This document shows positions 24,189-43,679 of a stretch of 64,000 bases of DNA, one piece after another. A program made the translations under genes and the position numbers. The stretch lies in the sequence record DRR378314_409, one strand, 5' to 3'. Each line of letters begins with the position of its first letter. The first letter of the stretch is position 1. The notes beneath the pieces were generated by a model, which worked only from the letters and a program-made list of their open reading frames with translations, searched no databases and had not been told where the DNA came from.

Positions 24189-25226
24189 TTAGCCTTCCAG
24201 AAGTTTGGTAATAGCAGCTTCATCTAGGCCGTGCTCGCCAATAATAACCAGGCGGCTAACCGGGTTTTCATTGGCCTGCCATTCCCGGTCATAATAATGT
24301 TGGATCCGGTTTCCAACGGCCTGCACCACAAGGCGCATTGCTTTTCCCTCAACGGCAATGAACCCTTTTGCCCGTAAAATACCATGAGTTTCAATGGCAG
24401 CCTTCAAGCGATCCAGAATTTCATTGGGAGTATCAGGGTTTGCCAGTTGGACTACAAAACTGTCGAAGTCGTCATGTTCATGATCATCGGCAGAATCATG
24501 ATGGGACTTTCGCACGTCCAAATCATCCTCTGCGGCCGCTCCAATCCCTAAAAGCACGCTGGCATCCAGCTTGCCATGACTGGTTTTAATAATTTTGACG
24601 GCCGGGCGAACTTGCGCGCTGATGTCCTCGGATGCTTTGTCGATGGCTTCGGCAGAAAGCATATCAGCTTTGTTGAGAAGGATCATATCTGCACAGTTGA
24701 GCTGGTCTTCAAATAATTCTTCCAGTGGGCTGTCATGATCCAGGTTCTCGTCGGCTTCCCGCTGGGCCTGCACCGCATCCGGATTAGCCGCAAACAAACC
24801 ATCGCGGTATGCGGGTCCATCTATAACGGTTACAACGCCATCAACGGTTACCTGGGTTCGAACTTCAGGCCAGCCGAAGGCCCGAACCAGCGGTTTTGGC
24901 AAGGCAAGACCGGACGTTTCGACGATTATATGGTCTGGCCGATTTTCCCGATCCAACAGAGCCTGGATCGTTGGCAGGAAATCATCAGCAACCGTGCAGC
25001 AGATGCAGCCATTTGCCAGCTCAAGGATGTCGTCCTCATCGCAATTTTCGTTGCCGCATCCTTTAAGGACCTCCCCATCAACGCCAAGATCGCCAAATTC
25101 GTTGATGATCAGAGCGAGGCGCTTGCCATTGGCGTTCTCAATGAGATTGCGAATGAGGCTGGTCTTACCGGCCCCCAAGAAGCCGGTAATAACGGTAGCG
25201 GGAATTTTTTCGTTGTTATTTTGCAT
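24189..25226 (-). CDS. cobW: Cobalamin biosynthesis metallochaperone GTPase (COG0523)
   Basis: TGFLGAGKT, INEFG, NGCICCTVADDF, ETSGLA.P, NKAD; directly upstream of cobN. Confidence 0.95.
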   Translation of the reverse strand: MQNNNEKIPATVITGFLGAGKTSLIRNLIENANGKRLALIINEFGDLGVDGEVLKGCGNENCDEDDILELANGCICCTVADDFLPTIQALLDRENRPDHIIVETSGLALPKPLVRAFGWPEVRTQVTVDGVVTVIDGPAYRDGLFAANPDAVQAQREADENLDHDSPLEELFEDQLNCADMILLNKADMLSAEAIDKASEDISAQVRPAVKIIKTSHGKLDASVLLGIGAAAEDDLDVRKSHHDSADDHEHDDFDSFVVQLANPDTPNEILDRLKAAIETHGILRAKGFIAVEGKAMRLVVQAVGNRIQHYYDREWQANENPVSRLVIIGEHGLDEAAITKLLEG

Positions 25227-25341: not shown

Positions 25342-25369
25342 GATCCTCCGTCATGGAATATAATATTTG

Positions 25370-25538
25370 GATGGCAGGTCTCCTGACTTGCGAATGACAC
25401 CCTGATCGCCCTTCCCGTCGATAACAGTGGGATATGATCCTGGCTAATCGCTTACAGTTGCGGGGACAGTCACGGAATTGACCAAAATCGCACCGTGTTC
25501 CCTTTTAATCCCGAGCGGCTGCTCTGGAACCATCGCAA
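25370..25538 (-). promoter_or_regulatory. Cobalamin (AdoCbl) riboswitch upstream of cobW-cobN-cobO-cobQ
   Basis: Minus strand reads GGTTCC...AAAAGGGAACACGGTG...AATTCCGTGACTGTCCCCGCAACTGTAAG...CCACTG...GGGAAGG...AAGTCAGGAGACCTGCCA (B12 box). Confidence 0.95.
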
Positions 25539-25641
25539 CGGACGCTATGCTGCTTCACGCCCGGTGTCAATTCTTTAAGTGACAGCGCAGGTTACACGGA
25601 TTAAATTGCGCCAATCCTCGGTTGTTATAAAAGGTAAGTTC

Positions 25642-29377: not shown

Positions 29378-29653
29378 ATGAAACTGAAAAAGATGAAATG
29401 CGGCGTGAAAGGGACGGCTTTGTGTGTCGTTGCTTTGTCCTTTGCGCTTGGGGGATGCTTTGATCCGTCCCAAAAGGAAATACTTGAAAAGGTCAATGGC
29501 CTGAAAAGTGCAGAGAAAATTGCTGTTGCGTTGGGGCCTGCAGATACCACCGATGAGACCGGTGCAATGACTTTGTGGCGGTATTCAGCACGCGAAGGGG
29601 ATGTTTGCTTTTCTGTTATTCGTGACATGGCGCTTCGGATGGCGTGCCAATAA
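29378..29653 (+). CDS. Small predicted lipoprotein
   Basis: Basic N-terminus, hydrophobic stretch, lipobox-like LGGC; LGPAD...WRY; two further Cys. Confidence 0.7.
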   Translation: MKLKKMKCGVKGTALCVVALSFALGGCFDPSQKEILEKVNGLKSAEKIAVALGPADTTDETGAMTLWRYSAREGDVCFSVIRDMALRMACQ

Positions 29654-29656
29654 CAG

Positions 29657-30457
29657 ATGGGCGGTCTCGCGCTCAGGGTCTTGTGCACCCTAATATGTCT
29701 GAGTTTCCTGCTGGTTGAAACTGCAACAGCGGAACGGCAGATTTTTCCAAGAGGCATTAAAGGAACAGACGATCGAAGTCGGGTTAATATTCGTGAATAT
29801 CCATGGAGTTCAATCGGTCGCCTGAATAAAGATGGTGGCTTTTGTACAGCCATTTTGATCGCGCCAAATCAGGTTTTGACGGCGGCTCATTGCTTTTGGA
29901 ACCGCAGAACTAACCGATGGTCTCTGGCTCGCTTTTATCATTTTGTCGTTGGGTATGAAAAAGGGTCGTTTTCGGCGCATGCGAAAGGGGTTTCCTATAT
30001 AACCCGCTACGGATCTTCACCCTCAAAAACCTTTCCGGAATTTCCAAGATCCGAAGACTGGGCGATTCTGACATTGGATCAGGCGTTGGGCTCCGAGTTT
30101 AAGCCCGTTCCAATTTTAAGTGAAACGCCAATTCTTAGAACCCTTCGGGCAAAACAGCCCGCAACGGTGAGTCAGGCCGGTTATAGCCGTGACTATGCCC
30201 ACGTGCTGACCGTCCATGCAAAATGCCAGATTACCTCAAAGCAGAAACCCTCCAAACAGTCGGATCCGGTTTTCGTTCATGATTGTGATGCGACACAGGG
30301 AGATTCCGGCTCACCCATTCTGCATTTTAACGGGAAGGAACCCGGCATAATCGGCATTCATTCTGCAACGTTAAAGTTGCAAAAAGGAAACACGTTGGGC
30401 CTTGCGGTCTCCAGCGGGCATTTTCGACGATTCGCTTATCCAGACTCCAACGACTGA
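29657..30457 (+). CDS. Exported trypsin-like (V8/glutamyl endopeptidase-like) serine protease
   Basis: Signal peptide; YPWSSIGRL, LTAAHC, DWAIL, AGY, CDATQGDSGSP (complete His-Asp-Ser triad). Confidence 0.9.
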   Translation: MGGLALRVLCTLICLSFLLVETATAERQIFPRGIKGTDDRSRVNIREYPWSSIGRLNKDGGFCTAILIAPNQVLTAAHCFWNRRTNRWSLARFYHFVVGYEKGSFSAHAKGVSYITRYGSSPSKTFPEFPRSEDWAILTLDQALGSEFKPVPILSETPILRTLRAKQPATVSQAGYSRDYAHVLTVHAKCQITSKQKPSKQSDPVFVHDCDATQGDSGSPILHFNGKEPGIIGIHSATLKLQKGNTLGLAVSSGHFRRFAYPDSND

Positions 30458-30479
30458 GTTTTGCCCTTCGGAGTGCTCA

Positions 30480-30570
30480 TCCCGCGAATTAGGGATAAGA
30501 AAACCTGAAAATATCCCTAAAATTTTAGTAAAATACCCAGAAAACTGTATTTAGTACCTCGTTTGGGGGA
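30480..30570. promoter_or_regulatory. Array of four imperfect 16-bp palindromes (NarL/LuxR-type boxes, putative)
   Basis: TCCCGCGAATTAGGGA 30480, CCCTAAAATTTTAGTA 30515, TACCCAGAAAACTGTA 30534, TACCTCGTTTGGGGGA 30555. Confidence 0.35.
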
Positions 30571-30668
30571 TGATTTTCTGAAATGGGCAAGCTAGCCTAG
30601 GCAGCATAATCGAATTCAAAGGTGAGCAGAAGAAGCCAGTCGGCTGCTGATGCGAGAGGTGTATTGAA

Positions 30669-31013
30669 ATGGCAAATTCGGATAAATTTGACTCCGTTGA
30701 CGCTGCCAGGATCGAAGAAGTGTTGCAGGACGCAGATAATTCTGCGAGTGCGTCAGTAGTTTCTGGCGAAGATACTGCAGTGACTGACTTTCTGACAGAT
30801 AATCAGGAAGAACTTGTCGATCTGGATGCCTTGTTCGATGCTTTGAATATTGCTGCCGAAGATGGTATCGATGCGATGAGTTATGTGGAAGATGCAGAGC
30901 ACGGGAGTACATTGTCGATCCCCGGAGACGCCCTACCAGTTTCCGGGCTGGAGGATGTATCTGCTGTTGTCGCGGACCAGTTGAAGGACGGGATCATCTC
31001 AGACGAATCCTGA
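30669..31013 (+). CDS. Small acidic protein resembling a stand-alone type I secretion C-terminal target domain
   Basis: RBS GAGAGG, own terminator; about a quarter D/E, no Cys, no signal peptide; DTAVTDF...LVDLDALFD pattern and GIISDES end. Confidence 0.6.
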   Translation: MANSDKFDSVDAARIEEVLQDADNSASASVVSGEDTAVTDFLTDNQEELVDLDALFDALNIAAEDGIDAMSYVEDAEHGSTLSIPGDALPVSGLEDVSAVVADQLKDGIISDES

Positions 31014-31037
31014 CATAGGTATAACTGTGTCACCTGC

Positions 31038-31069
31038 AGGCTCCCGATTGTGAAACGGGAGCCTTTTTT
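31038..31069 (+). terminator. Intrinsic terminator after the small acidic gene
   Basis: AGGCTCCCG-loop-CGGGAGCCT followed by a T run. Confidence 0.8.
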
Positions 31070-33140
31070 ATTCCGTATTTGATGCTGCCTGTTTTAAGGA
31101 GTCTTCAAAGGCGGCGCCGGCTTTCGTTGCAAGAAACTGGTCAAATGCCTCTGCAATGGTCGCATCATATTTTTCCGGGTTCGCCCGAAATACTTCCATG
31201 GCTTCTTCAACGCTGATAGCGCTGCGGTAAGTCCGGGGGGAGACCCGGGCAACAAGGATATCAGCCATACCTAGCAAACGTGCCAATATATCAATTCGAT
31301 CTCCTTGAAGCTTATTGGGATAGCCGGAGCCGTCCTGGCGCTCATACATTTGACAGACAGCCGTGATAACCGTGTCATCAATTTCCATTTCCCGAAGCAA
31401 TGCTTCAGCTTGGGCAACATGACCCTGCATTATCTGTTTTTCAGATTCTGAAAGGCGTCCTTCTTTGGTTCTGATCTCAGCTGGGATAGATATTTTTCCA
31501 ATTTGCGAGAGGTTCGCCCCCGCATGCAGGCTTTCTTTTTGTTCTCGTGATAGTGGCAGAATATCAGCTACACTGCCGGTCAAGACACTCATATGGGCGG
31601 AATGACCTGCCAGATGGGGATCGTTGGCCTCCAACATGCGAAGGAGGATTGAAATGGTTTTCCGGCCCAAATCCTCTTTCTGGCGTTGAAAGGTGATATA
31701 GTCGGTGATATCGCCACTGACCGTTACAATACCTAGAAAAGAGCCATCATCATCAACTAACTGGGATTTTTCAACACGTACGATTTTGGATTTTTTCTGA
31801 AGTTCCAGTTCAAGGATCTCGTTCAGGGTTTCGCCAGTTTCCGCAACCTGATTGTCCATATCTGAGAATTTACGCGCTATTTTATCCCCAAATAGATCCC
31901 GGTCGGTTTTCCCCGGGATGCTCGCTTCCGGAAAGTCAACAAAACGTGCAAGGGCCGGGTTCGCATAGGCGTAAGTGCCATCGGGCCCCTTGAGGCTGAT
32001 TAAATCCTGAACAGTGTTATTAATATTACCAAGTAACCGCCGCTGCGCATTAATCCGCTGTGCAAGATCTTTATATTGATCTGCGAGGTTTTTAGCATTT
32101 TGGGTTTTCAGGCTGAACCAGATACCGCTGCCAATACTGCAAATGACGACAAAGACGCTGACGGCAAGACCCAGAACAACAAAACTGTAGGTATTGAGAG
32201 GTGCCAGTGCAGAATCCGTTGGGATTGTTTGCATCAGGACCAAACCGGTGTTTTCAATGTCACGGCCGACAGTATAAGTGGTTTGGTTCATCCCCTCAAA
32301 ATCCCGCTCACTGAAGGTTATGAGATCCTCCTCAAGCGAAAATGCCTGTTCTGTTTCCAAATACGGGGGACGGTTCGGAGAGACCTCATGATAGCCGTCA
32401 GCTGCTTTTTGAAAGATACGTGTTGCCTCGCCCGTTAAAGATACAGTGGTTCGAGCGAGAATGGCCGACAGCGGTCCGGCAGCGGGGACCGTCATCAGAA
32501 ACGCGCCAACCGGTTTATTGGTGCTTTCCGATAAAGGCTGGGCGGCATAAATTGGTATGATGAAGTCAATAACCACATTCCCGCCAACCAGATGAAAAGG
32601 CGAGGTAAGAAAATTGGCTTGATTATATTGCTCTTGGGCAAGGTCCCTTTGATTTTGCGTTAAACTAGGGGAATTACTGGACGCCAGATAGGCGCGCCCG
32701 TCCTGGCCAATCATGTAGGCGGCAATCAGATTATTTTCACTGACAAACTGATTGATTGCATTTTGCATATAGGGAAGCTGAGCGGAGAGAGCGGTTGACA
32801 GCTCTTGTCCTTCTAACGCATTGATTTCGGATGCAAACAGCTTGATGAGAGGATTTCCAACGAGAGCATTGGATTGCTGTGCAGCTTGTTCAATCCAGGT
32901 TTTTAAAACATCAACTTTTCCGTTTACCGTGATTTGTTGCCGGGTTTCCAGAGAGTTGAGAATTTCAGCCTTTTTGTCTGAAATAATGATGTAGGAAATC
33001 CACATGCAGGCAATCAGCAGGACGAGGACAGATCCGATTGCAACCAGCAAAGGCTTATTTCGGTTTGTGGACATTTTATTTCCGGAGTTTTTTTCCTCCA
33101 GAAACCGTTCCAATTCAAAATGGGCAGTTGTTTCGGTCAT
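31068..33140 (-). CDS. Membrane receptor: TM, periplasmic (Cache-like) domain, TM, PAS, degenerate HD-GYP
   Basis: Two TM helices, PAS (ISLKGPDG..AYANPA...PGKTD), HD-GYP fold with LSQIGK in place of LHDIGK, QMYERQDGSGYP, SPRTYR. Confidence 0.85.
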   Translation of the reverse strand: MTETTAHFELERFLEEKNSGNKMSTNRNKPLLVAIGSVLVLLIACMWISYIIISDKKAEILNSLETRQQITVNGKVDVLKTWIEQAAQQSNALVGNPLIKLFASEINALEGQELSTALSAQLPYMQNAINQFVSENNLIAAYMIGQDGRAYLASSNSPSLTQNQRDLAQEQYNQANFLTSPFHLVGGNVVIDFIIPIYAAQPLSESTNKPVGAFLMTVPAAGPLSAILARTTVSLTGEATRIFQKAADGYHEVSPNRPPYLETEQAFSLEEDLITFSERDFEGMNQTTYTVGRDIENTGLVLMQTIPTDSALAPLNTYSFVVLGLAVSVFVVICSIGSGIWFSLKTQNAKNLADQYKDLAQRINAQRRLLGNINNTVQDLISLKGPDGTYAYANPALARFVDFPEASIPGKTDRDLFGDKIARKFSDMDNQVAETGETLNEILELELQKKSKIVRVEKSQLVDDDGSFLGIVTVSGDITDYITFQRQKEDLGRKTISILLRMLEANDPHLAGHSAHMSVLTGSVADILPLSREQKESLHAGANLSQIGKISIPAEIRTKEGRLSESEKQIMQGHVAQAEALLREMEIDDTVITAVCQMYERQDGSGYPNKLQGDRIDILARLLGMADILVARVSPRTYRSAISVEEAMEVFRANPEKYDATIAEAFDQFLATKAGAAFEDSLKQAASNTE

Positions 33141-33832
33141 TTTTCAATCCTCGCTGCTTCATTAGCCGCGGTGTATTGACTTGGGATATGCGCCCAACGG
33201 GTGGTCTCATTTACCGAATAGAGGGGCACATAGTATTTGACGAATTTTTCTTCGAAAACCTTATCTGTCTGAGAATCCAGAATGTAAGATTTCCGGTTGA
33301 GCCGTAGGCTGAGAATGGTATGGGCAGTCCCGCGAAGAACATCCCGCGTGACAACAATTCGCATCTGGCTAGAGGTGAACCCCAATTCTCTCAGACTGAC
33401 GTATTTCATGATGGCGAAATCTTCGGAATCTCCACCAACTGTCATAAATTCAAGTGGCGGCGCCCAATAATCCTTTTGATGGTGGGTCACCCAGTCACTG
33501 TTATACTGCCACTTGTTCACAAAGCGATTGATCTGTCGCATGATGATACTTTTGGGGCTGTTTTCCAGTTCCTGAATTTTGGTGCGCCATAGGGTCATTT
33601 GTTGTGAGTTGCATTTCAGGATGTCTTGATCGCAAGCAGTTGCTGCCCGATTTAAGTCCCCAAAACTATCCATCGCCCGGCGCCATTGAGGCAGCGCCTG
33701 CAAATCACTCGATGCTATTTCCAATGTACCAAACAGACCATCGGCATTTTGCGCCAGAGCGGATCCGCTCATCGGTAAGAGGGGAGCCAGAAGTACGCCG
33801 CCCAAAAAGATGTATCTAAAGAGTTTCATCAT
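33137..33832 (-). CDS. LapG-family transglutaminase-like peptidase (BTLCP/C93), Cys-to-Ser variant
   Basis: Signal peptide; INRFVN..QY..D, DYW..P.EF, GGDSEDFAIMKY..L...G, AHTIL, YILDS. Confidence 0.88.
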   Translation of the reverse strand: MMKLFRYIFLGGVLLAPLLPMSGSALAQNADGLFGTLEIASSDLQALPQWRRAMDSFGDLNRAATACDQDILKCNSQQMTLWRTKIQELENSPKSIIMRQINRFVNKWQYNSDWVTHHQKDYWAPPLEFMTVGGDSEDFAIMKYVSLRELGFTSSQMRIVVTRDVLRGTAHTILSLRLNRKSYILDSQTDKVFEEKFVKYYVPLYSVNETTRWAHIPSQYTAANEAARIEK

Positions 33833-35157
33833 CTTTCCCGGAGTGCGTTATTCTTGGTTTTCAGGATTGGTTTCAGGATGTAGTCCAGAACAGATTTGTG
33901 ACCTGTTAATGTATCTACTGATGCAATCATGCCTGGCTTGATGGGAAAGATTTTCTCTCCACGCTTCAGAGAGGCTTCTTCGGTGCGCACAATAATTTTA
34001 TAGAATGTCTCACCGGTTTGCTCATTGACCGTTGTATCCGCGCTGATCCGCTCAACAGTTGCTGGCAGACCTCCGTAGATGGAAAAATCATAAGCTGTGA
34101 TCTTCACGGTTGCCTTTTGGCCAGGTCTGAGGAAGGCGATATCGGACGGACGGATCTTGGCTTCAACCAACAGGTTTTCTTCAATAGGGACAATTTCAAC
34201 GATATCCTGACCAGGTTTTACAACGCCACCAATAGTCTGGATTTTCAGCTCTTTAACTTCCCCTTTGAGCGGCGAGCGAACATCCGTTCGGGTGACCCGG
34301 TCGCGCGCTGCCAAAATGGTTTGGCGAACAGATTCATAATCTGCACGGGCAATACTCAATTCCTGGGAGGCCAGACTTCTGAAGTTCAGAATTTTCTCTT
34401 CAATCCGCTGGTTGGCTTCCTGCAGGGCGCCTCTCGCTCGGGGCAGGGCGAGTTCAGAGGCGGAAATCTGCCCTTTAAGATCATTGGCTTCGCGCTTCAG
34501 TTTCAGAAGCTGGACTTTTGGGACAATTCCTTTGACCGCGAGCGGCTCTGTAATTGCGAGTTCTTCATTTACAAGGGCTAAACTGGATTTTAATTGCCTT
34601 AGGCGGCCGTCAATTTCGGCGATTTCCTGTTTTCGTTGCTGGGCCTGTTGCCGCAGGATCGAAATTTGAGACTGCAGCTCTGCTTGGCGGGCGTTGAAAA
34701 GGTTTTGCTCCCGAATGGAAATTTGTTGTCCTTCTGCGAGCAGCTCAGGCGGATAATCGACGCCTTTTCCTTCTGCCTCAGCGCTCAAGCGGGCAATTTT
34801 ACCCATCAGGTTTAGATATTTGGATTCAATTTCGCCAACCCGGGCTGCGAAGCCCGTATCATCAATTCGCAGAAGGATCTGCCCTTTCTCAACAATTTCG
34901 CCTTCACGCACCAGCAGTTCCTTGAGAATACCCCCCTCCAGATTCTGGATGATCTGTACCTGAGATGAGGGAATAACTTTACCGTCACCCCGCGTCACTT
35001 CATCAAGGATTGCATTGTCTGCCCAGATAAAGGCCGCGACAAAAAAAGCGATGACGCCAAATAGCAAAAGCATCGACTTGGGGTTCGGGCCCTGCATTTT
35101 GGCCGCAACCACATCCGAGGCAAAATCGGTATCATTCCATTCCGTTTGACTAGCCAT
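33829..35157 (-). CDS. HlyD-family T1SS periplasmic adaptor (LapC-like)
   Basis: GKVIPSSQVQIIQNLEGGI, RSP..G.VK, TIGGVVKPG, VKITAYDFSIYG, PGM, YILKPI...ALRER. Confidence 0.93.
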   Translation of the reverse strand: MASQTEWNDTDFASDVVAAKMQGPNPKSMLLLFGVIAFFVAAFIWADNAILDEVTRGDGKVIPSSQVQIIQNLEGGILKELLVREGEIVEKGQILLRIDDTGFAARVGEIESKYLNLMGKIARLSAEAEGKGVDYPPELLAEGQQISIREQNLFNARQAELQSQISILRQQAQQRKQEIAEIDGRLRQLKSSLALVNEELAITEPLAVKGIVPKVQLLKLKREANDLKGQISASELALPRARGALQEANQRIEEKILNFRSLASQELSIARADYESVRQTILAARDRVTRTDVRSPLKGEVKELKIQTIGGVVKPGQDIVEIVPIEENLLVEAKIRPSDIAFLRPGQKATVKITAYDFSIYGGLPATVERISADTTVNEQTGETFYKIIVRTEEASLKRGEKIFPIKPGMIASVDTLTGHKSVLDYILKPILKTKNNALRER

Positions 35158-35193
35158 TCTTACGGTCTCTTCCTGTCAAATTCACGATCGCAC

Positions 35194-37515
35194 TCACTGC
35201 GTTTTGCCGGTTTTTTTGGTTGCGCGCTGTCCCACTTTCAGAATTTCATCCCTTGGCCCGTCCGCAACCACTTTGCCATGTCCAAGAACGATGATGCGAT
35301 CAACGACCGAGAAGAGCGAGGTTCGATGCGTGACCAACAGCAATGTCTTGCTCTGTGCAAATTTTTTCGGTTTAGAGATGAACTGACGTTCCGAATTTAG
35401 ATCCATGGAACTGGTCGGTTCATCAAACATGAGAACGGGCGGATTGGGAAGCAAAGCCCGGGCAATACCCATGGACTGTCTTTGCCCACCGGATAATGTA
35501 GCGCCTTTCTCCCCAACTTTCAGATCATAGCCATGGGGGTGGCGACTGACAAAATCATGAACACCAGCCAATTTTGCGGCCTTGAGGATCATTTCATCGT
35601 CTGCTTGCGGATGGCCCATGGTGATATTCTGGCGGATCGTCGCCTGGAACAGCGTTACGTCCTGCATGACGCTGCCGACAGAGCGCCGAATATCAGAGGG
35701 ATCGATTTGACGAATATCGGTGCCGTCGATGAGAACAGCGCCTTCATCAGGCTCATACAAATTAATTAAAAGCCGGGAAATAGTCGTTTTTCCAGATCCG
35801 ACCGGGCCAATAATGGCAACCTTTTCACCAGGTTGAATTTTGAAGGATACGTTTGAAAGGGCTGGGATGTCAGTACCGGGATATTTAAATGTGACATCTT
35901 TGAATTCAATTTCACCATGAATGTTAGGCCGGCTCAGCTGGCGCTTTTCAGCGGCTCTTTCCACGGGCAAGGCCATAATCTGGTTTAACCCTTTCAAGGC
36001 AACCATCGCTTGGTTGAGCCGCGTTAATAGAGCTGCAATCTGACCCAGAGGGGCCATGGTCCGGCCGGTTAAAATGGTGGATGCAATGAGAGCGCCAATT
36101 GTCATCGTGCTATCGGGTTGCGACATAAGATAGACGCCATAAACAACCACAAGAACGGTTACCAACTGCATTGCAGCGGCAGAAAGGTTGATGCCCAATG
36201 TTGCAAAGAAACGTGAAACCACGCTGGTTTGCGCGGTCTGACCGACAAAACGCTCCCACTCCTTTTGCATATGGCCTTCAACACCAAGGCTTTTGACCGT
36301 ATCAAGTGCAGAGATCGTCTCAATAATCACGCCATGTTTTTGAGAGCTTTCCTCAGTATTTTTGGCAACTGAGCGTCGCATGGGCAGTTGCAGCAATAGG
36401 CCCATAATAATGACAACAGGAACCGCAACAGCCGGGACGATGGCGATCGGTCCACCAATTAAGTAAATAATTAGCAAAAATACGCCCAGGAAGGGCAGAT
36501 CAACAAGCGCAGTAACGGTCGCAGAAGTAAAAAAATCGCGAAGCGTTTCGAATTCCCGCAAGTGGTTGGCAAATGCCCCGGCAGATTGGGGGCGTGCTTT
36601 CACCTGGATATTGAGGACTTGTTCAAAAATCCGGCTGGACAGAAGAACGTCGGCCCTTTTTCCCGCATTATCGACAAAATAGGCTCGCAAGGTTTTCAAA
36701 AGAAGATCAAAACAGATAACGGTGATGACGCCAAAAGCCAGGACTGAAAGCGTTTCCAGTGCCTTGTTGGGAACAACACGATCATAAACATTCATGATGA
36801 AGAGCGGGCTCGCAATCGCAAAGCTGTTAATCAGAAAGGCAGCCAGGATCACTTGCGAATAGGTTGGCCAAAATTGCCACATGGTTCCCCAGAACCAAGA
36901 CCCTTTGCGCTGGTACAGTTTTTCATCTCTTTCGATGCGGAACTGGAAGTTGGGGCGAACAAAGATCGCGTATCCAGCATATAGGTCTTCCAGTTCTTTT
37001 AAGGGAATAACTTGATGCCCTTCACCGGTTTCCGGGAAAATAACCTCAGCTTCTTTATCGGTTTTTTTCAGCAGAACACAGGCTTTTTTCTCTTTGAGTA
37101 GTAAAACAGTGGGCAGGACAACTGATGGAATTTTATCCAGTTTTCGATTTGTAATGCGGGCACTGATCCGAACTTTTTCTGCGGCCCTAATAAAAAGATT
37201 TGGGGTTAGCCGATTCTCTTCCAGCGGGAGCCCATAAACCAGCGCATCTTCGGTTCGTGGGTCTTCAAAAATCTTTGTCAATGCGACGAGGCAGCCCAGC
37301 AAAGGATCTTGGTCGGTTCTTTTGATATCTGAAAGCGGGATATCCCAGTTGTCTTCCTGTTCTGCTTTTTCGAGGGACGGCTCAGCAGCGTTTTCAATGA
37401 CAGGGTCGTCGGTTGCCGAGTTGTCAGCGATTGATCGCAGTCTTTCTGTCGTTGATACGTCTATTGCGCTTGGGTCTTCTGTTGCCCCACCCGCCATAGT
37501 TTGCTTATCTGTCAT
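35194..37515 (-). CDS. T1SS permease/ATPase with C39-like domain (LapB/LssB-like)
   Basis: DPLLGCL...GLP N-domain, SWFWG, LFIMNVYDRVVPN, DLPF, GPVGSGKTT, LSGGQRQ, FDEPTSSMD, VTHR; start estimated. Confidence 0.93.
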   Translation of the reverse strand: MTDKQTMAGGATEDPSAIDVSTTERLRSIADNSATDDPVIENAAEPSLEKAEQEDNWDIPLSDIKRTDQDPLLGCLVALTKIFEDPRTEDALVYGLPLEENRLTPNLFIRAAEKVRISARITNRKLDKIPSVVLPTVLLLKEKKACVLLKKTDKEAEVIFPETGEGHQVIPLKELEDLYAGYAIFVRPNFQFRIERDEKLYQRKGSWFWGTMWQFWPTYSQVILAAFLINSFAIASPLFIMNVYDRVVPNKALETLSVLAFGVITVICFDLLLKTLRAYFVDNAGKRADVLLSSRIFEQVLNIQVKARPQSAGAFANHLREFETLRDFFTSATVTALVDLPFLGVFLLIIYLIGGPIAIVPAVAVPVVIIMGLLLQLPMRRSVAKNTEESSQKHGVIIETISALDTVKSLGVEGHMQKEWERFVGQTAQTSVVSRFFATLGINLSAAAMQLVTVLVVVYGVYLMSQPDSTMTIGALIASTILTGRTMAPLGQIAALLTRLNQAMVALKGLNQIMALPVERAAEKRQLSRPNIHGEIEFKDVTFKYPGTDIPALSNVSFKIQPGEKVAIIGPVGSGKTTISRLLINLYEPDEGAVLIDGTDIRQIDPSDIRRSVGSVMQDVTLFQATIRQNITMGHPQADDEMILKAAKLAGVHDFVSRHPHGYDLKVGEKGATLSGGQRQSMGIARALLPNPPVLMFDEPTSSMDLNSERQFISKPKKFAQSKTLLLVTHRTSLFSVVDRIIVLGHGKVVADGPRDEILKVGQRATKKTGKTQ

Positions 37516-38092
37516 TATGTGTTTCCATATCCCGACACGCATCTGCTTGAACTCTAAACCCAGCCGGCAGTTCAGCAGGAGCGCAGCCCCATTAATTGGT
37601 CTCAAATCTGAAGGCAGTACACTGCCTTGGAGTTGGACCTTACCCCAATTGCTTCCAAGTCCTTATGAAACTTGGAAATGTACACTCATGGTTGCATTCT
37701 ATTGATATATAAAAAGCCATTTTAGTGAAAAACATGTTAACAAACCTAATTCTGTCAAAATATTCGCCATAGGCAAAGTTGAATTCTTGATTATGGTTAA
37801 TTTCAAGTGATGTCTTCGGACCTGTTGGCGGGGTAGAGATCTCTGAATATAAATATCCTATCTTGATTAGAAGTAACTAAGGTTGAAAAGAAACAAGGGT
37901 TTAAGTTCACAAGTGCTAGCCTTATTCGTTCTGTTTTTTAGAGAGAATTTCAAATTCTAGAATGCAAATCACTCCCGAATCTCAGTTTTCAGTATGAGGG
38001 AGAGTTGTGAATACACTTTCTGTGAAGAATAGGGCGCGATTGTGAATGTTTATAGGCAGGCTAAATCGTTGCAAAAAAAACACAAAATCGCT

Positions 38093-38107
38093 TTAAGCGA
38101 GATTTAA
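38093..38107. promoter_or_regulatory. CtrA-consensus box in the lapB/tolC divergent region (putative)
   Basis: Perfect TTAA-N7-TTAA (TTAAGCGAGATTTAA); near-match TTAA-N7-TTGA at 38119-38133. Confidence 0.45.
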
Positions 38108-38298
38108 TCGGGGAAGTGTTAAGTCCGAGTTGATTATATTCGGCTGCATACGATACTATCCTGCAAAATCCACGCTTTACGCGAAATTTTCTTTACGTTT
38201 ATTAAAGGAAATTGGTTGATATATTTAATAAATATAGACAAAAATCCGTATGCGACAGAGTACGGTCTTCGGAGATTTAAGATGATTGGGAGAGGGGT

Positions 38299-39639
38299 AT
38301 GATTTCCAGTTTGGGCTCAAAGAGTGCTCGAAAGTTAGTGGCAACGAGTGCACTGGCAGCCATTTTGGCGAGCGCTTCCATTTTATCACCAGCTGTTGCA
38401 GCATCATTGAAAGATGCAGTCCAGACAACGGTTAATAGCTATCCTGAAATCGGCGAGGCATCTGCCAATCGTCGGGCCATTGATCAGGAACTTGAGCAAG
38501 CACACGGACTATATTACCCATCTGTTGACCTGGCTCTAGGGGGCGGTAAAGAATGGACGGATACGGTCACCATTGATGATGAGTGGTTGACCCGGACCGA
38601 AAGTAGTCTCTCACTTTCACAGACATTGCTGGATGGCGGTGCACGATCTGCCGAGGTTGATCGGCAATCCAGTCGGGTTGATGGCGCGGCGTATCGGGTG
38701 CGGGAGCGGGCTGAAGCTATCAGCCTTGATGCAGTGCAGGCTTATCTTGATGTTTTGAGAAACCAGGAAATTGTGAGCCTGGCTCAGGAAAATCTGGAAA
38801 TTCACAAACAGACACTTTCTGAAATCAGTGACCGTGTTGATGCCGGACAAAGTGGTGTTGGGGATGCTCAGCAGACCGACGCCCGCGTAGCTGCTGCCGA
38901 AGCAACTGTTGCCGAGACATTACGTCAGCTTGATGCTTCCGAAATCGCATATCGTCGCTTGGTCGGTGAATCGCCAGTAGATTTAACGCAGCCAGCTTTT
39001 AATGATGGCGTTCTTCCAGAGCAACTTGAAGATATTGTTGCAATCGGTCTGGAAAGTAATCCGGATGTGCGCTTTGCCAAGGCCGATGTAAACACAGCGG
39101 ATGCGGAAATTCGCGCAGCTGAAGCAAATTTCTATCCAACAGTTGCCCTGGAGCTGGATGCTAGCGCTGACAATGATATTGACGGTGTCGAGGGTCACAA
39201 TGATGACTTCACTGCAATGGTACGACTGCGCTACAATCTTTACAGAGGTGGGATTGACGTTGGACGTCAGCAAGAAGCGATCGAAAGAAGCGCGGAAAGC
39301 AAGCAGCGTCAGGCTCGTTTTGAGCGTTTGGTTGAAGAGGAAATCCGTCAAGGTTGGAGTATAATGGCCCGGTCCAAAGCTCGTGCTGCCGCACTGGGGG
39401 ATCAGGTTGTTGCGAATGGACAGGTTGCATCAACCTATCGTCAGGAATTCCAGATTGGTCAACGTGATCTTCTCGACATGTTGGATGCCGATAATGAACT
39501 ATTCAACTCACGAACTGCCTTGGCAACCGTTGAATATGCGGTTTTGTTCTCAAAATATAGATTGCTTGCGACTATGGGCCGTTTGAACAGCACGCTCGGC
39601 GTAGTTTTGCCAGAAGAAGCTCTACCTGGTCGGAACTAA
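38299..39639 (+). CDS. TolC-family T1SS outer membrane protein (LapE-like)
   Basis: Signal peptide; YYPSVDL, Q.L.DGG, YLDVL, YNLYRGG, Y..EF.IGQR.LLD.LDA.NE. Confidence 0.92.
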   Translation: MISSLGSKSARKLVATSALAAILASASILSPAVAASLKDAVQTTVNSYPEIGEASANRRAIDQELEQAHGLYYPSVDLALGGGKEWTDTVTIDDEWLTRTESSLSLSQTLLDGGARSAEVDRQSSRVDGAAYRVRERAEAISLDAVQAYLDVLRNQEIVSLAQENLEIHKQTLSEISDRVDAGQSGVGDAQQTDARVAAAEATVAETLRQLDASEIAYRRLVGESPVDLTQPAFNDGVLPEQLEDIVAIGLESNPDVRFAKADVNTADAEIRAAEANFYPTVALELDASADNDIDGVEGHNDDFTAMVRLRYNLYRGGIDVGRQQEAIERSAESKQRQARFERLVEEEIRQGWSIMARSKARAAALGDQVVANGQVASTYRQEFQIGQRDLLDMLDADNELFNSRTALATVEYAVLFSKYRLLATMGRLNSTLGVVLPEEALPGRN

Positions 39640-39658
39640 TTCAACGATTACTTAATTT

Positions 39659-39689
39659 AAAAGCCTCGCAGTTTTGCGAGGCTTTTTTT
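39659..39689. terminator. Bidirectional intrinsic terminator between tolC and lapG
   Basis: AAAAGCCTCGCA-loop-TGCGAGGCTTTT with flanking A and T runs. Confidence 0.85.
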
Positions 39690-39704
39690 ATTGGAAAAGC
39701 TGGT

Positions 39705-40340
39705 TCAGGTTGGTTTGTAACGCCACCAGCCTTTTTCGTTCAGGGCATATATGGGACGGTAATGGCGAATTCGCTTTGCGTCAATAACGAGACCAATCTG
39801 ATTGTCCAGAACCATCTTTTTATTTTCAAAATTGACCGTGAGTATGGCGTGGGCAATTCTAAGGTTCATGTCCTGCAGAACAATGATTTTCATGTCATCC
39901 GCACTCCAGCCGAGTGCACGCAGAGTGAAATATTTAACAATTGCGTAGTCTTCACAATCCCCAAATTTGGCAAAAAACTCTTTAGGGATCTCCCAGTAAT
40001 CCTTGATACCCCAATTGATGGGGTCCAGTATATATCGGTAGAGATTTAGATATGAGTTGACCTTGGCGAGTTGAAATTTTTTGGGTTGATCTTTCAGCTG
40101 GTCGATCAGCTCTTTCCACTTGTCATAAGCACAAGCGTTCAACTGACCGCTCCCACAGGGACCGGGTTCATTTTTGTAAGAATTCAAAACCTTGCGCCAT
40201 TTGGGGAACGGCTTCAGGTCCGTATGAGTGTAGGCCTTGAAGCCGAAAATATCCGGGCTTTCCGCTGAAGCATGCGGGGGACTGAAAATGAGACATCCCA
40301 GTATTAAAGACGCTTTCAGTAATGTTTTCATACTTGCCAC
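39705..40340 (-). CDS. LapG-family transglutaminase-like cysteine peptidase (BTLCP/C93), canonical
   Basis: Signal peptide; DYWEIPKEF, GDCEDYAIVKY..L...G, AHAIL, VLDN (Cys-His-Asp triad intact). Confidence 0.93.
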   Translation of the reverse strand: MASMKTLLKASLILGCLIFSPPHASAESPDIFGFKAYTHTDLKPFPKWRKVLNSYKNEPGPCGSGQLNACAYDKWKELIDQLKDQPKKFQLAKVNSYLNLYRYILDPINWGIKDYWEIPKEFFAKFGDCEDYAIVKYFTLRALGWSADDMKIIVLQDMNLRIAHAILTVNFENKKMVLDNQIGLVIDAKRIRHYRPIYALNEKGWWRYKPT

Positions 40341-40513
40341 AAGTTAAGATGGGTTGCCATTTCCAAGCAAATCTAGACGTAAAATGGAAAATTCATTCTA
40401 ATAGTCGTCTAAAAAGGTAAACAACCATTAACTCTCTATTTAAAAACTTATGAAATTATTGTGAGTTAAAAGCTAACCCGTTACAATACATAAATTTTTG
40501 ACGACCGGCGTCA

Positions 40514-42640
40514 GTGACACAGGAAGCAGTAATGTCTGATATCAACGAAGAAATCAGTGCGACAAAGCGAACCCATAAAGTCATTTGGTTTGCATTTATT
40601 CTGCTATTTGCCGTCGTCGTTGGCGGCGTATGGGGAACGATTTCTTTCGTTAATCAACAGCGCGAGCGGGACCTTCAGAATTGGGAAATCCGTCTTGGCA
40701 TTGTTGCTGATAGCCGCCTTGCCAGTGTTGAAGAGTGGCTGGCCAAGCAAAAAGACGCAATTCTTTCTTTGGCTGAAAACGAAAGTCTTCAAGTCTATTT
40801 AACACAGTTGGTGATCGATACAGAAGACAACGGATCAAGAATAGAAGAGGTCCCCGAAGCTGGTTATCTGACAAATCTTTTAAATAATCATGCGGTCATC
40901 AGCGGGTTCTGGGAAGCGCCGGAACCGGAAATTCGAGCGAATGTTGCAAGACCGGGAAAAGCAGGCATTGCGCTAACCGATGCTACTGGAAAGCTGCTTG
41001 TCTCCAGTGGCAATATGCCTCCGATGACACCGGAAATCCGTGCAGCAATGGCGGAAGCGGACAGTGGGGTTTCAGCCGTTATTGATGCGTATGAAGGATT
41101 GGATGGCGAGCCGATCATGGGCTTTGTACAACCGGTCTATGCAATTCAGCAAGATAGTGACGCGGAAAATATTATTGGCTTTATTGTCGGTGTGCGAACA
41201 ATAGGGAGATCTTTGTTCCCCCGGTTGTTTCAACCAGGAGATACGCATCAAACCAGTGAGACATATCTTGTTCGGCAGAATGGAAACCTTACAGAATATG
41301 TTTCGCCGTTGGCGGATGGGACAGGTCCACTGAAGCGCCGCCTGACAACGGATGATGGCCGCGCGGCCTCTTTCGTGATAAGCAAACCCGGTGCGTTTGC
41401 AACCAAGTTTAATTATCTTGGAGATGAGGTTCTGGTCACCGGGCGCGCTGTTACCGGCGCCCCTTGGTATCTGGTGCGAAGCATTACTACTTTTGAGGCT
41501 CTGTCAGAATCCAAAGATCGCCTGAACACCATGTTAGGCGTGTTCCTGCTGCTGATCCTAGGTGTTACCGGGACGGTCGTTGCGGTTTGGCGGCATGGTA
41601 CATCCATTCGAGCTGCAGAACTTGCTGAAAAATATAAGAAAACCGCCGATGATTTACAGGAACAGTCTAATTTTTTGAATGTCGTGACCGATAGCCAGCC
41701 GACGGGTATTGCTGTTTTCAGTGATCGGAACCGATTTACTTTTGCAAACAAAGTCGCGGCAGATGCGGTGGAAATGCCTAAAGACGCTGTTGTCGGACGG
41801 CGGATTACAACTGTCTATCCTCCTGAGGTTGCGGAACAGATCCAGGAAATGTTGCATGAAGCGGGAAAAGATAATCAAAACAAGAGCCAGCTTATTGAAG
41901 TTCTGCAAGGTGACGAAGATCATATCTGGAAATCCGATGTTATTCCCCTTGGTGCGGGCAGAGATCAAATCAATAACTTTCTTGCGGTTTTCCAAGACAT
42001 TACAGATGTTGTAAATGAACGCGAGCAGCGTGAAGCGGTTCTTCGAAATCTTGTTTCCACTCTGGTTGCCTTTTTGGATCGGCGTGATCCATATTCTGCC
42101 AACCAATCTTCGAGGGTGGCGGAGGTTGGGGTTGCGATTGCAGAGGAATTAGGCAGTGCAGAACGTGTTATTCGCACCGTCGATATTACAGGTAATCTTA
42201 TGAACCTTGGTAAGATCCTGGTGCCGACTGAAATTCTCACCAAGGCTGGCGATTTGACAGCAGATGAAATGGAAATTGTCCGGGATAGTTTGTTTGCAAG
42301 TGCAGATCTATTGGACGATGTGAAGTTTAACCTACCGGTGACTGAAACTCTCCGTCAGCTTCAGGAACGATGGGATGGGACTGGTAAACCACGGGGCTTG
42401 AAAGAGGCTGCAATTAATGAAGCTGCTCGCATTATCATGGTGGCCAACGCTTTTGTTGGTATGGTCAGCCCGCGGGCTTACCGTGATGCCCATGATTTCA
42501 GCAAGGCGGTCACAATTTTGATGGAGGATGCGGACAAGAAATTCGACCGCCGTCCGGTCAGTGCACTGGTCAATTTCTTGGACAATCGTGGGGGAAGAGA
42601 CAAGTGGGCCCACTTCGCCGTTCCTCCTGAAAGCAACTAA
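40514..42640 (+). CDS. Second membrane receptor: TM, periplasmic (Cache-like) domain, TM, PAS, degenerate HD-GYP
   Basis: Two TM helices, PAS, RDPYSANQS, LMNLGK for LHDIGK, QLQERWDGTGKP for HHERxDGxGYP, SPRAYR. Confidence 0.85.
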   Translation: MTQEAVMSDINEEISATKRTHKVIWFAFILLFAVVVGGVWGTISFVNQQRERDLQNWEIRLGIVADSRLASVEEWLAKQKDAILSLAENESLQVYLTQLVIDTEDNGSRIEEVPEAGYLTNLLNNHAVISGFWEAPEPEIRANVARPGKAGIALTDATGKLLVSSGNMPPMTPEIRAAMAEADSGVSAVIDAYEGLDGEPIMGFVQPVYAIQQDSDAENIIGFIVGVRTIGRSLFPRLFQPGDTHQTSETYLVRQNGNLTEYVSPLADGTGPLKRRLTTDDGRAASFVISKPGAFATKFNYLGDEVLVTGRAVTGAPWYLVRSITTFEALSESKDRLNTMLGVFLLLILGVTGTVVAVWRHGTSIRAAELAEKYKKTADDLQEQSNFLNVVTDSQPTGIAVFSDRNRFTFANKVAADAVEMPKDAVVGRRITTVYPPEVAEQIQEMLHEAGKDNQNKSQLIEVLQGDEDHIWKSDVIPLGAGRDQINNFLAVFQDITDVVNEREQREAVLRNLVSTLVAFLDRRDPYSANQSSRVAEVGVAIAEELGSAERVIRTVDITGNLMNLGKILVPTEILTKAGDLTADEMEIVRDSLFASADLLDDVKFNLPVTETLRQLQERWDGTGKPRGLKEAAINEAARIIMVANAFVGMVSPRAYRDAHDFSKAVTILMEDADKKFDRRPVSALVNFLDNRGGRDKWAHFAVPPESN

Positions 42641-42659: not shown

Positions 42660-43679
42660 CTAAAGAATAGGGCCGGCCTGTAGAGCGGCCGGGCCCGTCA
42701 GGATGAGTTTAACCAACTCACTTTGTCGACTGGTATCTGTTTTGCGGAAAATCTGACGGAGTTGGGAGCGGACGGTATGCATGCTGACCCCCCATTCTTC
42801 AGCAAGGTCATCCAGCTTGCTGCCATTTGTCAATCCGAGCGCCAGTCGTCCTTCTGCAGGGGTTAAAGCATAAAGGCGGCAAATTGTGTCAATGGACAGC
42901 TCAACCGCCTCGCTTGGATCGGAAATAAAGAGAACAGCGCCTTTTCCAGCTACACCTGTTCCAATAGGCGCCACCATGACAGTCAGCGCGGTATCACTGT
43001 CTTCGCGTGATACGGACATGGAAAAATCGCTTTCCATGTTTTCACCTTCGGCAGATAACGCATTTTCCAACAATTCGGTAAGTTGTTTATTTTCTTTAAC
43101 GTTGCTGGCCCGACAGACGCGATTGCTATCCAAAAGGAGCCCGTCTTTTCGATCCAGAAATGCTTTTGCCTTCCCGTTCAAAAACAGAACTCTGGAAGCT
43201 GACGTCACCAAAATAACGCCAAGTGGCAGCCTGTTAAGGACAGCCGTTGCAGATTCAAGCAACGGTGTCGTGTCGGGCGATCTACCTTGACCGCTTTGGC
43301 GTTCAATTGCACTGATCAGGTTCCGGGCAAGACCATTTGCCGTTAATTGATTTCGGATCAAATAATCCTGTGCACCATTTCGAATAGCAAGCTTTCCAAT
43401 ATTTTCTTCATCATCGGTCAGCAGAACAACAGGTGTTTCGGGGAAAACGGAGCGAAGTGATTTTAAGGTTTCAAAATCGGTATCGCCCGTACTATCAGCG
43501 TCTAATAGCACCACATTCGCGTTTGCGAGGCTGCGTTGATTAAGCACTGCATCTGCATCGGGCAGGTGCATAAGTTCCAAAATCGGCTTGGTGACATTTG
43601 AAATCAGCCAGCTGAGTTGCTGTGCATCACCTTCTTTTCGTCCGATGAAAAGAATTTTACAGGTCGGTGCATCGTTCAT
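42660..43679 (-). CDS. Atypical receiver, PAS-like and LuxR HTH transcriptional regulator
   Basis: REC fold (VVLLD, PVVLLT, GAQDYL), PLGVILV PAS-like segment, LTPAE...G...TVRSQL.QIF.KT...RQ.ELV. Confidence 0.88.
   Translation of the reverse strand: MNDAPTCKILFIGRKEGDAQQLSWLISNVTKPILELMHLPDADAVLNQRSLANANVVLLDADSTGDTDFETLKSLRSVFPETPVVLLTDDEENIGKLAIRNGAQDYLIRNQLTANGLARNLISAIERQSGQGRSPDTTPLLESATAVLNRLPLGVILVTSASRVLFLNGKAKAFLDRKDGLLLDSNRVCRASNVKENKQLTELLENALSAEGENMESDFSMSVSREDSDTALTVMVAPIGTGVAGKGAVLFISDPSEAVELSIDTICRLYALTPAEGRLALGLTNGSKLDDLAEEWGVSMHTVRSQLRQIFRKTDTSRQSELVKLILTGPAALQAGPIL

Follow-up and report, generated by a model that had tools for sequence, protein, structure and literature searches.

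Positions 33137..33832 (minus strand) of a 64,000-nucleotide stretch of DNA from sequence record DRR378314_409, referred to here as the window, encode a LapG/DvhG-like BTLCP protein of 231 amino acids, named GS, in which Ser136 occupies the position of the catalytic Cys. The best reading of this putative pseudoprotease is that of a conserved non-catalytic LapG/DvhG descendant in a Dvh-type type I secretion system (T1SS)/adhesin system that is controlled by cyclic di-GMP (c-di-GMP) and belongs to a Sneathiella-like alphaproteobacterium. It is probable that GS acts as a pseudoprotease that docks on a receptor and has no catalytic activity of its own. Lap and Dvh systems are textbook examples of inside-out c-di-GMP signalling, in which biofilm adhesins are controlled by periplasmic proteolysis, and all G proteins of such systems that have been characterized are, to our knowledge, active cysteine proteases. 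The other principal members of the locus are named GC (the Cys paralogue of GS) and D1 and D2 (the two receptors).

Codon 136 of GS is TCC (33427-33425, minus strand) and places Ser at the catalytic Cys position within GGDSEDFAIMKY. The Cys-His-Asp triad of Peptidase C93 is therefore incomplete, with Ser for Cys and with the triad His and Asp retained as His171 (codon CAT, 33322-33320, minus strand, in AHTIL) and Asp186 (codon GAT, 33277-33275, minus strand, in YILDS). Acidic residues D135, E137 and D138 flank Ser136, and the predicted calcium-site motif D-x-E-D is kept. The N-terminus, MMKLFRYIFLGGVLLAPLLPMSGSALA followed by QN, resembles a Sec signal peptide when judged by eye. Membership of the family is indicated by a match to Pfam PF06035 (Peptidase_C93) over residues 67-218 (E 3.3e-15, 56.7 bits against a cut-off of 27) and by matches to the solved LapG proteins of Legionella pneumophila (4fgo, E 6.1e-21) and Pseudomonas fluorescens (4u65_E, E 3.6e-15), and the LapG alignments place Ser opposite the catalytic Cys (ggdSedfai versus ggdCedfai). 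An AlphaFold 2 model of mature GS is of high confidence (pLDDT 91.5, pTM 0.88) and has the transglutaminase-like LapG fold; the top six Foldseek matches of this model are LapG chains, including 4fgq, 4fgo and 4u65_E, with E values of 5e-12 to 5e-11 and TM scores of 0.62-0.71. GC reads FGDCEDYAIVKY and shares 31% identity with GS over 211 columns (E 2e-40); its site string, DCEDHD, holds the full set of residues of a Cys protease at the level of sequence, and that of GS does not. The initial annotation had described GS as a LapG paralogue with Ser for the catalytic Cys and with the His, the Asp, the flanking acids and the signal peptide retained, and this description is borne out by a base-by-base reading, the PF06035 match and the LapG alignments, with the signal peptide recognized by eye.

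The same annotation had allowed for a strain-specific mutation or a sequence error, in which TGC was read as TCC, one base apart, and had proposed that orthologues at the same position be aligned. A search for homologues found 178 proteins at E ≤1e-5 and listed 120 of them; the top match, named Sneathiella limimaris, is 76% identical to GS. In an alignment of the 120 listed homologues, to which the two window proteins were added, the nucleophile column holds Ser 86 times, Cys 30 times, Ala four times, and Pro and Thr once each; Ser is present in 85 of the 120 listed homologues. A genome scan with one genome per species yielded 80 related loci, and at the syntenic position in these, after the gene for the membrane fusion protein (MFP) and before the D1 homologue, Ser is found in 34, Ala in three (GCG), Thr in one (ACG) and Cys in 42 (TGC or TGT). 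The Ser codons of the 34 loci are TCA in 12, TCC in eight, TCT in five and TCG in nine, and the GS frame is intact in all loci whose contig spans the full gene. Because Ser is encoded in 34 other loci, from independent assemblies and by all four TCN codons, neither an error nor a private mutation accounts for it, and the close orthologues are far from being uniformly Cys; we consider the probability of such an artefact to be negligible. Judged by its orthologues, the Ser is real and conserved over a group of marine alphaproteobacteria. A library clustered at 50% identity gave 4524 hits, and among the best 150 representatives, aligned with MAFFT, 13 are non-Cys (Ser in six, Ala in three, Pro in two, and Glu and Asp in one each), nine of the 13 being among the 15 closest to GS.

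The non-Cys proteins form a coherent group. In a quick IQ-TREE analysis of 105 G proteins, from which the short sequences of loci L040 and L061 were left out, the 37 non-Cys rows of the alignment make up one side of a branch with an SH-aLRT support of 98, nested among mostly operon-linked Cys forms from other alphaproteobacterial assemblies titled Kiloniellales, Geminicoccaceae and Rhodospirillales. The 38 non-Cys loci and the window fall in one clade, and proteins of the GC type form a separate deep clade (SH-aLRT 100). The tree was repeated without the active-site columns so that the trait itself could not place the rows; the free quick search then needs two changes instead of one, and a tree constrained to hold the non-Cys rows together is better than the free tree by 10.08 log-likelihood units (p-AU 0.672). 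A single origin is likely because the constrained tree is the better one and is not rejected. A single loss of the Cys is the simplest reading and is likely, not proven, two events being possible. Most simply, catalysis was given up by the operon copy in a lineage that had two G/D pairs.

The active site of this clade has decayed in many of its members. All 68 Cys rows read D-C-E-D followed by His and Asp, and the corresponding string DSEDHD is present in 21 of the 37 non-Cys rows, the window included. The four site residues of the other 16 read GSRD in nine rows (one of them with His changed to Gln) and RSED, RSRD, DSEG, DTVD, GAAE, AAAD and GAEA in one each. In a comparison of 34 non-Cys with 40 Cys rows, positions with a conservation of 90% or more among the Cys forms proved to be relaxed or changed in their non-Cys counterparts chiefly beside the triad (S133, D135, C136, E137, Y139, A172, V173, A175 and L188), with a few elsewhere, including Y110, G118, Y122, F152 and T210. 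Within the clade, Ala, Thr, Pro, Glu or Asp can take the place of the nucleophile and the calcium site decays, both of which point to an absence of catalysis by GS. An alternative is that GS is an active hydrolase that uses a Ser-His-Asp triad in a transglutaminase-like fold, the nucleophile having been swapped at least in the subclade of the window. D135, S136, E137, D138, His171 and Asp186 are all intact in GS, Ser is used in 33 of the 37 non-Cys rows with four TCN codons, and the modelled LapG fold is a confident one, all of which are compatible with such an enzyme. However, other residues have replaced the nucleophile in several lineages and calcium-site acids have been lost in 16 of the 37 rows, with the gene persisting in both cases; relaxation affects the conserved neighbours of the triad, and a Cys paralogue has been kept wherever this could be checked. 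Exchange of Cys for Ser in papain-like or transglutaminase-like enzymes usually abolishes most activity, and we know of no natural Ser nucleophile in a transglutaminase-like fold. The variation within the clade weakens the proposal of the initial annotation that GS is a Ser-nucleophile variant, even though GS itself still has D-S-E-D, His and Asp, and we regard an active Ser hydrolase as unlikely.

Loss of the catalytic Cys could also mean that GS is a functionless relic carried along in its operon, and the faster evolution of GS and D1 relative to GC and D2 would agree with this (between the window and locus L001, GS is 64% and GC 74% identical, D1 57% and D2 72%). Against a relic stand the intact frame in every fully covered locus, the maintenance of start/stop coupling to the neighbouring genes, and the pattern of substitution. 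Nei-Gojobori estimates of dN/dS for GS range from 0.059 to 0.135 in seven pairs with dS of 0.18-2.3; in pairs with a defined estimate the values are 0.019-0.146 for GC, 0.036-0.089 for D1 and 0.015-0.030 for D2. Across 74 G sequences 25 positions are invariant, among them C67 and C74, which likely form a disulfide, W50 of LPQW, and N208, E209, R212, W213, A214 and H215 of NETTRWAH. Judged by these ratios, GS is under purifying selection, and a relic is very improbable. GS thereby combines the marks of a pseudoenzyme: a homologous fold, a missing catalytic residue and purifying selection.

GS is encoded as the third of four minus-strand genes in a row, namely a T1SS ABC transporter with a C39-like N-terminal domain (35194..37605; ABC_tran 1.7e-32, ABC_membrane 2e-21, and a Peptidase_C39 match of 23 bits against a cut-off of 22), an MFP of the HlyD family (33829..35157; HlyD_3 9.4e-22), GS and D1. 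ATGA overlaps join the MFP stop to the GS start and the GS stop to the D1 start. A TolC-like outer membrane factor (38299..39639, plus strand; OEP 5.5e-45) completes the T1SS set that is encoded with GS, and beyond it lie GC (39705..40340, minus strand; PF06035, 62.2 bits), which from its intact D-C-E-D, His and Asp is presumed to be an active protease, and D2 (40514..42640, plus strand), which is divergent from GC. The gene order is kept in related loci, and the series D2, GC, TolC, ABC, MFP, GS, D1 is found in 24 of the 24 Sneathiella-type loci that are long enough to show it. One of the Sneathiella-like loci, L004 (JBALWO010000014.1), comes from an assembly titled as a Pseudomonas marincola metagenome-assembled genome; its GS and D1 share 97% identity with their L003 counterparts, and the title is probably a binning or labelling error.

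A Cys paralogue is present in every genome or locus with a non-Cys form in which this could be checked. At locus L032 a gene of the GC type follows 5 kb downstream, and each of the five searched genomes with a non-Cys form (Thr in one, Ala in three, Ser in one) holds a second PF06035 gene that reads GDCEDYAI.KY; the Ser genome is not an independent case because it is the genome of L032 itself. Sneathiella genomes have exactly two PF06035 matches in five of five, and genomes with a Cys operon copy have a single match in three of five. A third PF06035 paralogue was seen at L091 (G004:C4:324197-327391), in a genome with an Ala operon copy; reading GGDEEDYAIAKF, it has Glu in place of the nucleophile, and the library representatives P0123 (Glu) and P0151 (Asp) are comparable. 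The coexistence of a non-Cys form with an intact one is not peculiar to this family: the pseudo-caspase FLIP(L) reportedly lacks the nucleophile, is conserved and occurs together with the active cysteine protease of which it is a paralogue, and so offers an analogous pairing of a pseudoprotease with an active paralogue, without homology to GS.

The receptors identify the type of system. D1 (31068..33140, minus strand) is a DvhD-like transmembrane receptor of 690 amino acids (HD_5 1.6e-35, PAS_4 3.5e-14) with a periplasmic dCache-like domain at about residues 54-317, followed by a PAS domain and a degenerate HD-GYP domain in which GYP is kept; the sequences ANLSQIGK and QMYERQDGSGYP show SQ in place of HD and MY in place of HH. 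Its matches in the Protein Data Bank (PDB) are 9rc0 (PAS/HD-GYP, E 2.6e-48), 9rbz (HD-GYP, 5.2e-38) and 9rc2 (periplasmic/dCache, 4.1e-20), which are taken to be DvhD structures on the strength of the depositor name 'HD domain/sensory box protein' and the SQ motif reported in the available text of PMC13090378. The degenerate HD-GYP domain of DvhD (SQ and MN) is described there as binding c-di-GMP without hydrolysing it. D2 is a second DvhD-like receptor (HD_5 4.9e-31, PAS_4 1.5e-12) with a PAS domain and a degenerate HD-GYP domain that has MN for HD and GKP for GYP, and is 20% identical to D1 over its whole length. Because D1 matches the DvhD-like PDB entries and shares the SQ degeneracy, and D2 is similar, the locus is by its sequence a Dvh-type and not a LapD-type system, with two G/D pairs.

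Comparison with the characterized systems brings out what is shared and what is particular to the window. In Desulfovibrio vulgaris Hildenborough, the DvhG/DvhD system has the same order of T1SS ABC and MFP genes, BTLCP protein and receptor (PMC10990149 and PMC13090378, available text), and DvhD resembles D1 in its periplasmic dCache, PAS and HD-GYP domains with SQ for HD (PMC13090378, available text). A DvhD homologue from Sneathiella marina is listed in the supplementary neighbourhood table of PMC13090378, whose main text never uses the word 'serine'. DvhG is described in these sources as a calcium-dependent protease that is active and in which both the C-H-D triad and the calcium site are complete; C317A inactivates it, whereas GS has Ser; DvhG also has a transmembrane helix and a long linker, whereas GS begins with a signal-peptide-like N-terminus. 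Unlike the Dvh system, the locus in the window has two G/D pairs, one without and one with the Cys. LapG of P. fluorescens and L. pneumophila (PDB 4FGO, 4FGP, 4FGQ and 4U65; PMC4359373, available text) belongs to the same Pfam family and fold as GS (Foldseek E 5e-12) and, like GS, is described as a periplasmic, T1SS-adjacent protein with the D-x-E-D calcium motif and an inner-membrane c-di-GMP receptor. LapG has Cys where GS has Ser, and the dCache/PAS/HD-GYP layout of D1 differs from the LapD_MoxY_N/HAMP/GGDEF/EAL layout of LapD given in the same text.

Structure prediction suggests a direct contact between GS and its neighbouring receptor. A complex model of the periplasmic fragment of D1 (54-322) with mature GS (28-231), made without alignments, has a score of 0.74, against 0.00 for the best of three controls; this score, a measure of model confidence, is attained by 51 of 78 solved complexes and by two of 108 mismatched pairs. 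The GS-D1 runs agree in at least 92% of contacts, with a partner pLDDT of at least 84. Predicted contacts on the GS side (full-length numbering) fall at 37-52, 121, 123, 161, 163, 170, 204-205 and 212-223 and include the invariant LPQW and RWAH, and those on the D1 side, at fragment positions 43-78 and 146-150, hold the most strongly conserved residues of the fragment, L45, L48, F49, E52, L65, Q68, M72 and Q148. The interface residues of GS are no less conserved among members of the non-Cys clade (0.70) than among those of the Cys clade (0.64). The model thus supports docking of GS on the periplasmic dCache domain of D1. The predicted arrangement is similar to the AlphaFold 3 model of DvhD-DvhG in the available text of PMC13090378, a dCache helix meeting the sheet side behind the active site, and lacks the GWxQ-loop tryptophan mechanism described for LapD in that of PMC4359373. 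Because GC differs at the RWAH positions (WWRY) and the helix motifs of D1 are missing from D2, the GS/D1 and GC/D2 pairs may be insulated from each other.

Of the functions that the initial annotation offered for GS, a pseudoprotease is the best supported, by the Cys-less clade, the varied nucleophile residue, the decay of the acids, the purifying selection and the modelled docking; both of the roles that it named for a pseudoprotease, protection of the adhesin and an action on the receptor, are possible. By analogy with DvhD (PMC10990149 and PMC13090378, available text), D1 would bind c-di-GMP at its inactive HD-GYP domain and would capture or release GS in the periplasm. In the mode that we prefer, which is speculative, free GS would then bind the periplasmic retention domain and cleavage region of a secreted adhesin without cutting it. 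In this way GS would compete with GC, and the two receptor/ligand pairs would jointly set the balance between retention and release of the adhesin. Provided that GS is a pseudoprotease, we give a non-cleaving guard of the adhesin roughly an even chance, and the rest goes to an action of GS on its receptor or on the secretion apparatus itself. A stricter version, in which GS is a c-di-GMP-gated anti-protease, a substrate trap with D1 as its dedicated receptor that, once released, would cover both the retention domain and the cleavage region of the adhesin and so block GC, which would answer to D2, is conceivable and is put forward tentatively. We know of no such anti-protease layer in any Lap or Dvh system; if it were true, two pairs with opposite outputs would give a window or hysteresis in the decision to shed the adhesin.

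A large adhesin gene was not found in the window, where the longest open reading frame is CobN (1247 amino acids). In five Sneathiella genomes, a search for the NF033682 retention module gave matches below the cut-off only (best 39.2 bits versus 50); these appear by eye to be FecR-type beta domains and were not accepted as adhesin retention modules. The proteins that carry them are either large, at three loci with neighbouring genes that look like CHASE2 cyclases, or small and secreted. A search for the TIGR03661 type I secretion C-terminal domain found, in three Sneathiella genomes, a gene at a distance of 70-86 kb from the G/D locus. Candidate adhesins with this domain are a VWA-domain protein of 2164 amino acids (L115:13153-19647, plus strand) and another of 879 amino acids (L116:2110-4749, minus strand), one of the two having RTX repeats. 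Both share an N-terminal ...D-[IV]-[SN]-P-[AQ]-[SA]-G..GGGANF, and the family of large proteins that look FecR-like by eye has DP..[IS]-P-[EQ]-A-G...GGGA.F; the two motifs resemble the published DP...[T/A/P]AAG consensus without matching it, and the proteins are candidates only. The candidate adhesins of L115, L116 and L102-L106 have in common P-[AQE]-[SA]-G and then GGGA.F after a beta-rich N-terminal domain. They may be substrates or ligands of GC and GS.

Several points weigh against a non-catalytic GS that works through D1 and an adhesin. The rows that keep Ser, the flanking acids, D138, His and Asp, 21 of 37 with GS among them, do so at 43-64% overall identity, and Ser is kept in 33 of the 37 non-Cys rows, even where the calcium-site acids are gone; such persistence could reflect a chemical role that has been retained just as well as one in structure or binding. 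The trees come from quick searches and have SH-aLRT support only. Three very close pairs (dS 0.06-0.13) give GS dN/dS values of 0.37-0.62, based on few substitutions; D1 gives 0.36-0.43 in two of these pairs and is identical in the third, and one pair includes a record with ambiguous bases. The complex score cannot tell which member of the family binds. Binding of an adhesin by GS is pure inference because the substrate adhesin was not found in the window.

Other features were seen in the window and in related loci. Three co-directional plus-strand genes at 29378-31013 converge on D1: an open reading frame of 91 amino acids, a secreted-looking trypsin-like serine protease (29657-30457; Trypsin 1.7e-16, with TAAHC and GDSGSP motifs) and a very acidic open reading frame of 114 amino acids (30669-31013). 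Among the 80 related loci the 91-residue frame is found in 16, the trypsin-like protease in 37 and the acidic frame in 27, the counts for the latter two being of copies right beside D1; in eight Cys-type loci a trypsin-like gene directly follows D1 on the same strand. The trio may be a recurrent accessory of alphaproteobacterial Dvh-type loci. Next to D2, at 42660-43679 (minus strand), is a gene for a protein of 339 amino acids that resembles a receiver domain weakly, at 20 bits and short of the cut-off, and which is kept at the D2-adjacent place in 23 related loci at 56-79% identity. Between the convergent genes for the TolC-like factor and GC, a GC-rich hairpin of 12 bp with T runs (39659-39686) looks like a bidirectional terminator, and a promoter and terminator scan of 30400-40600 gave counts that are not above those of shuffled sequence. 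In an Rfam scan of the whole window the sole match was a cobalamin riboswitch (RF00174, 113.3 bits; 25356-25549, minus strand), upstream of a CobW-like gene (24189-25226) and the cob cluster, and a c-di-GMP riboswitch was not found.

The LapG/DvhG family itself is well known, and what is new here is a probable pseudoprotease branch of it with a receptor of its own. No description of a Cys-less LapG was found among the titles and abstract openings listed by searches of the open-access PMC and bioRxiv literature. The annotation 'transglutaminase-like cysteine peptidase' is the wrong name for members of the non-Cys clade. That a Cys-less branch is conserved with its own DvhD-like receptor and its place in the secretion operon, beside an intact protease/receptor pair, suggests that the LapG fold can serve a purpose other than proteolysis and that adhesin release is under two-channel control.

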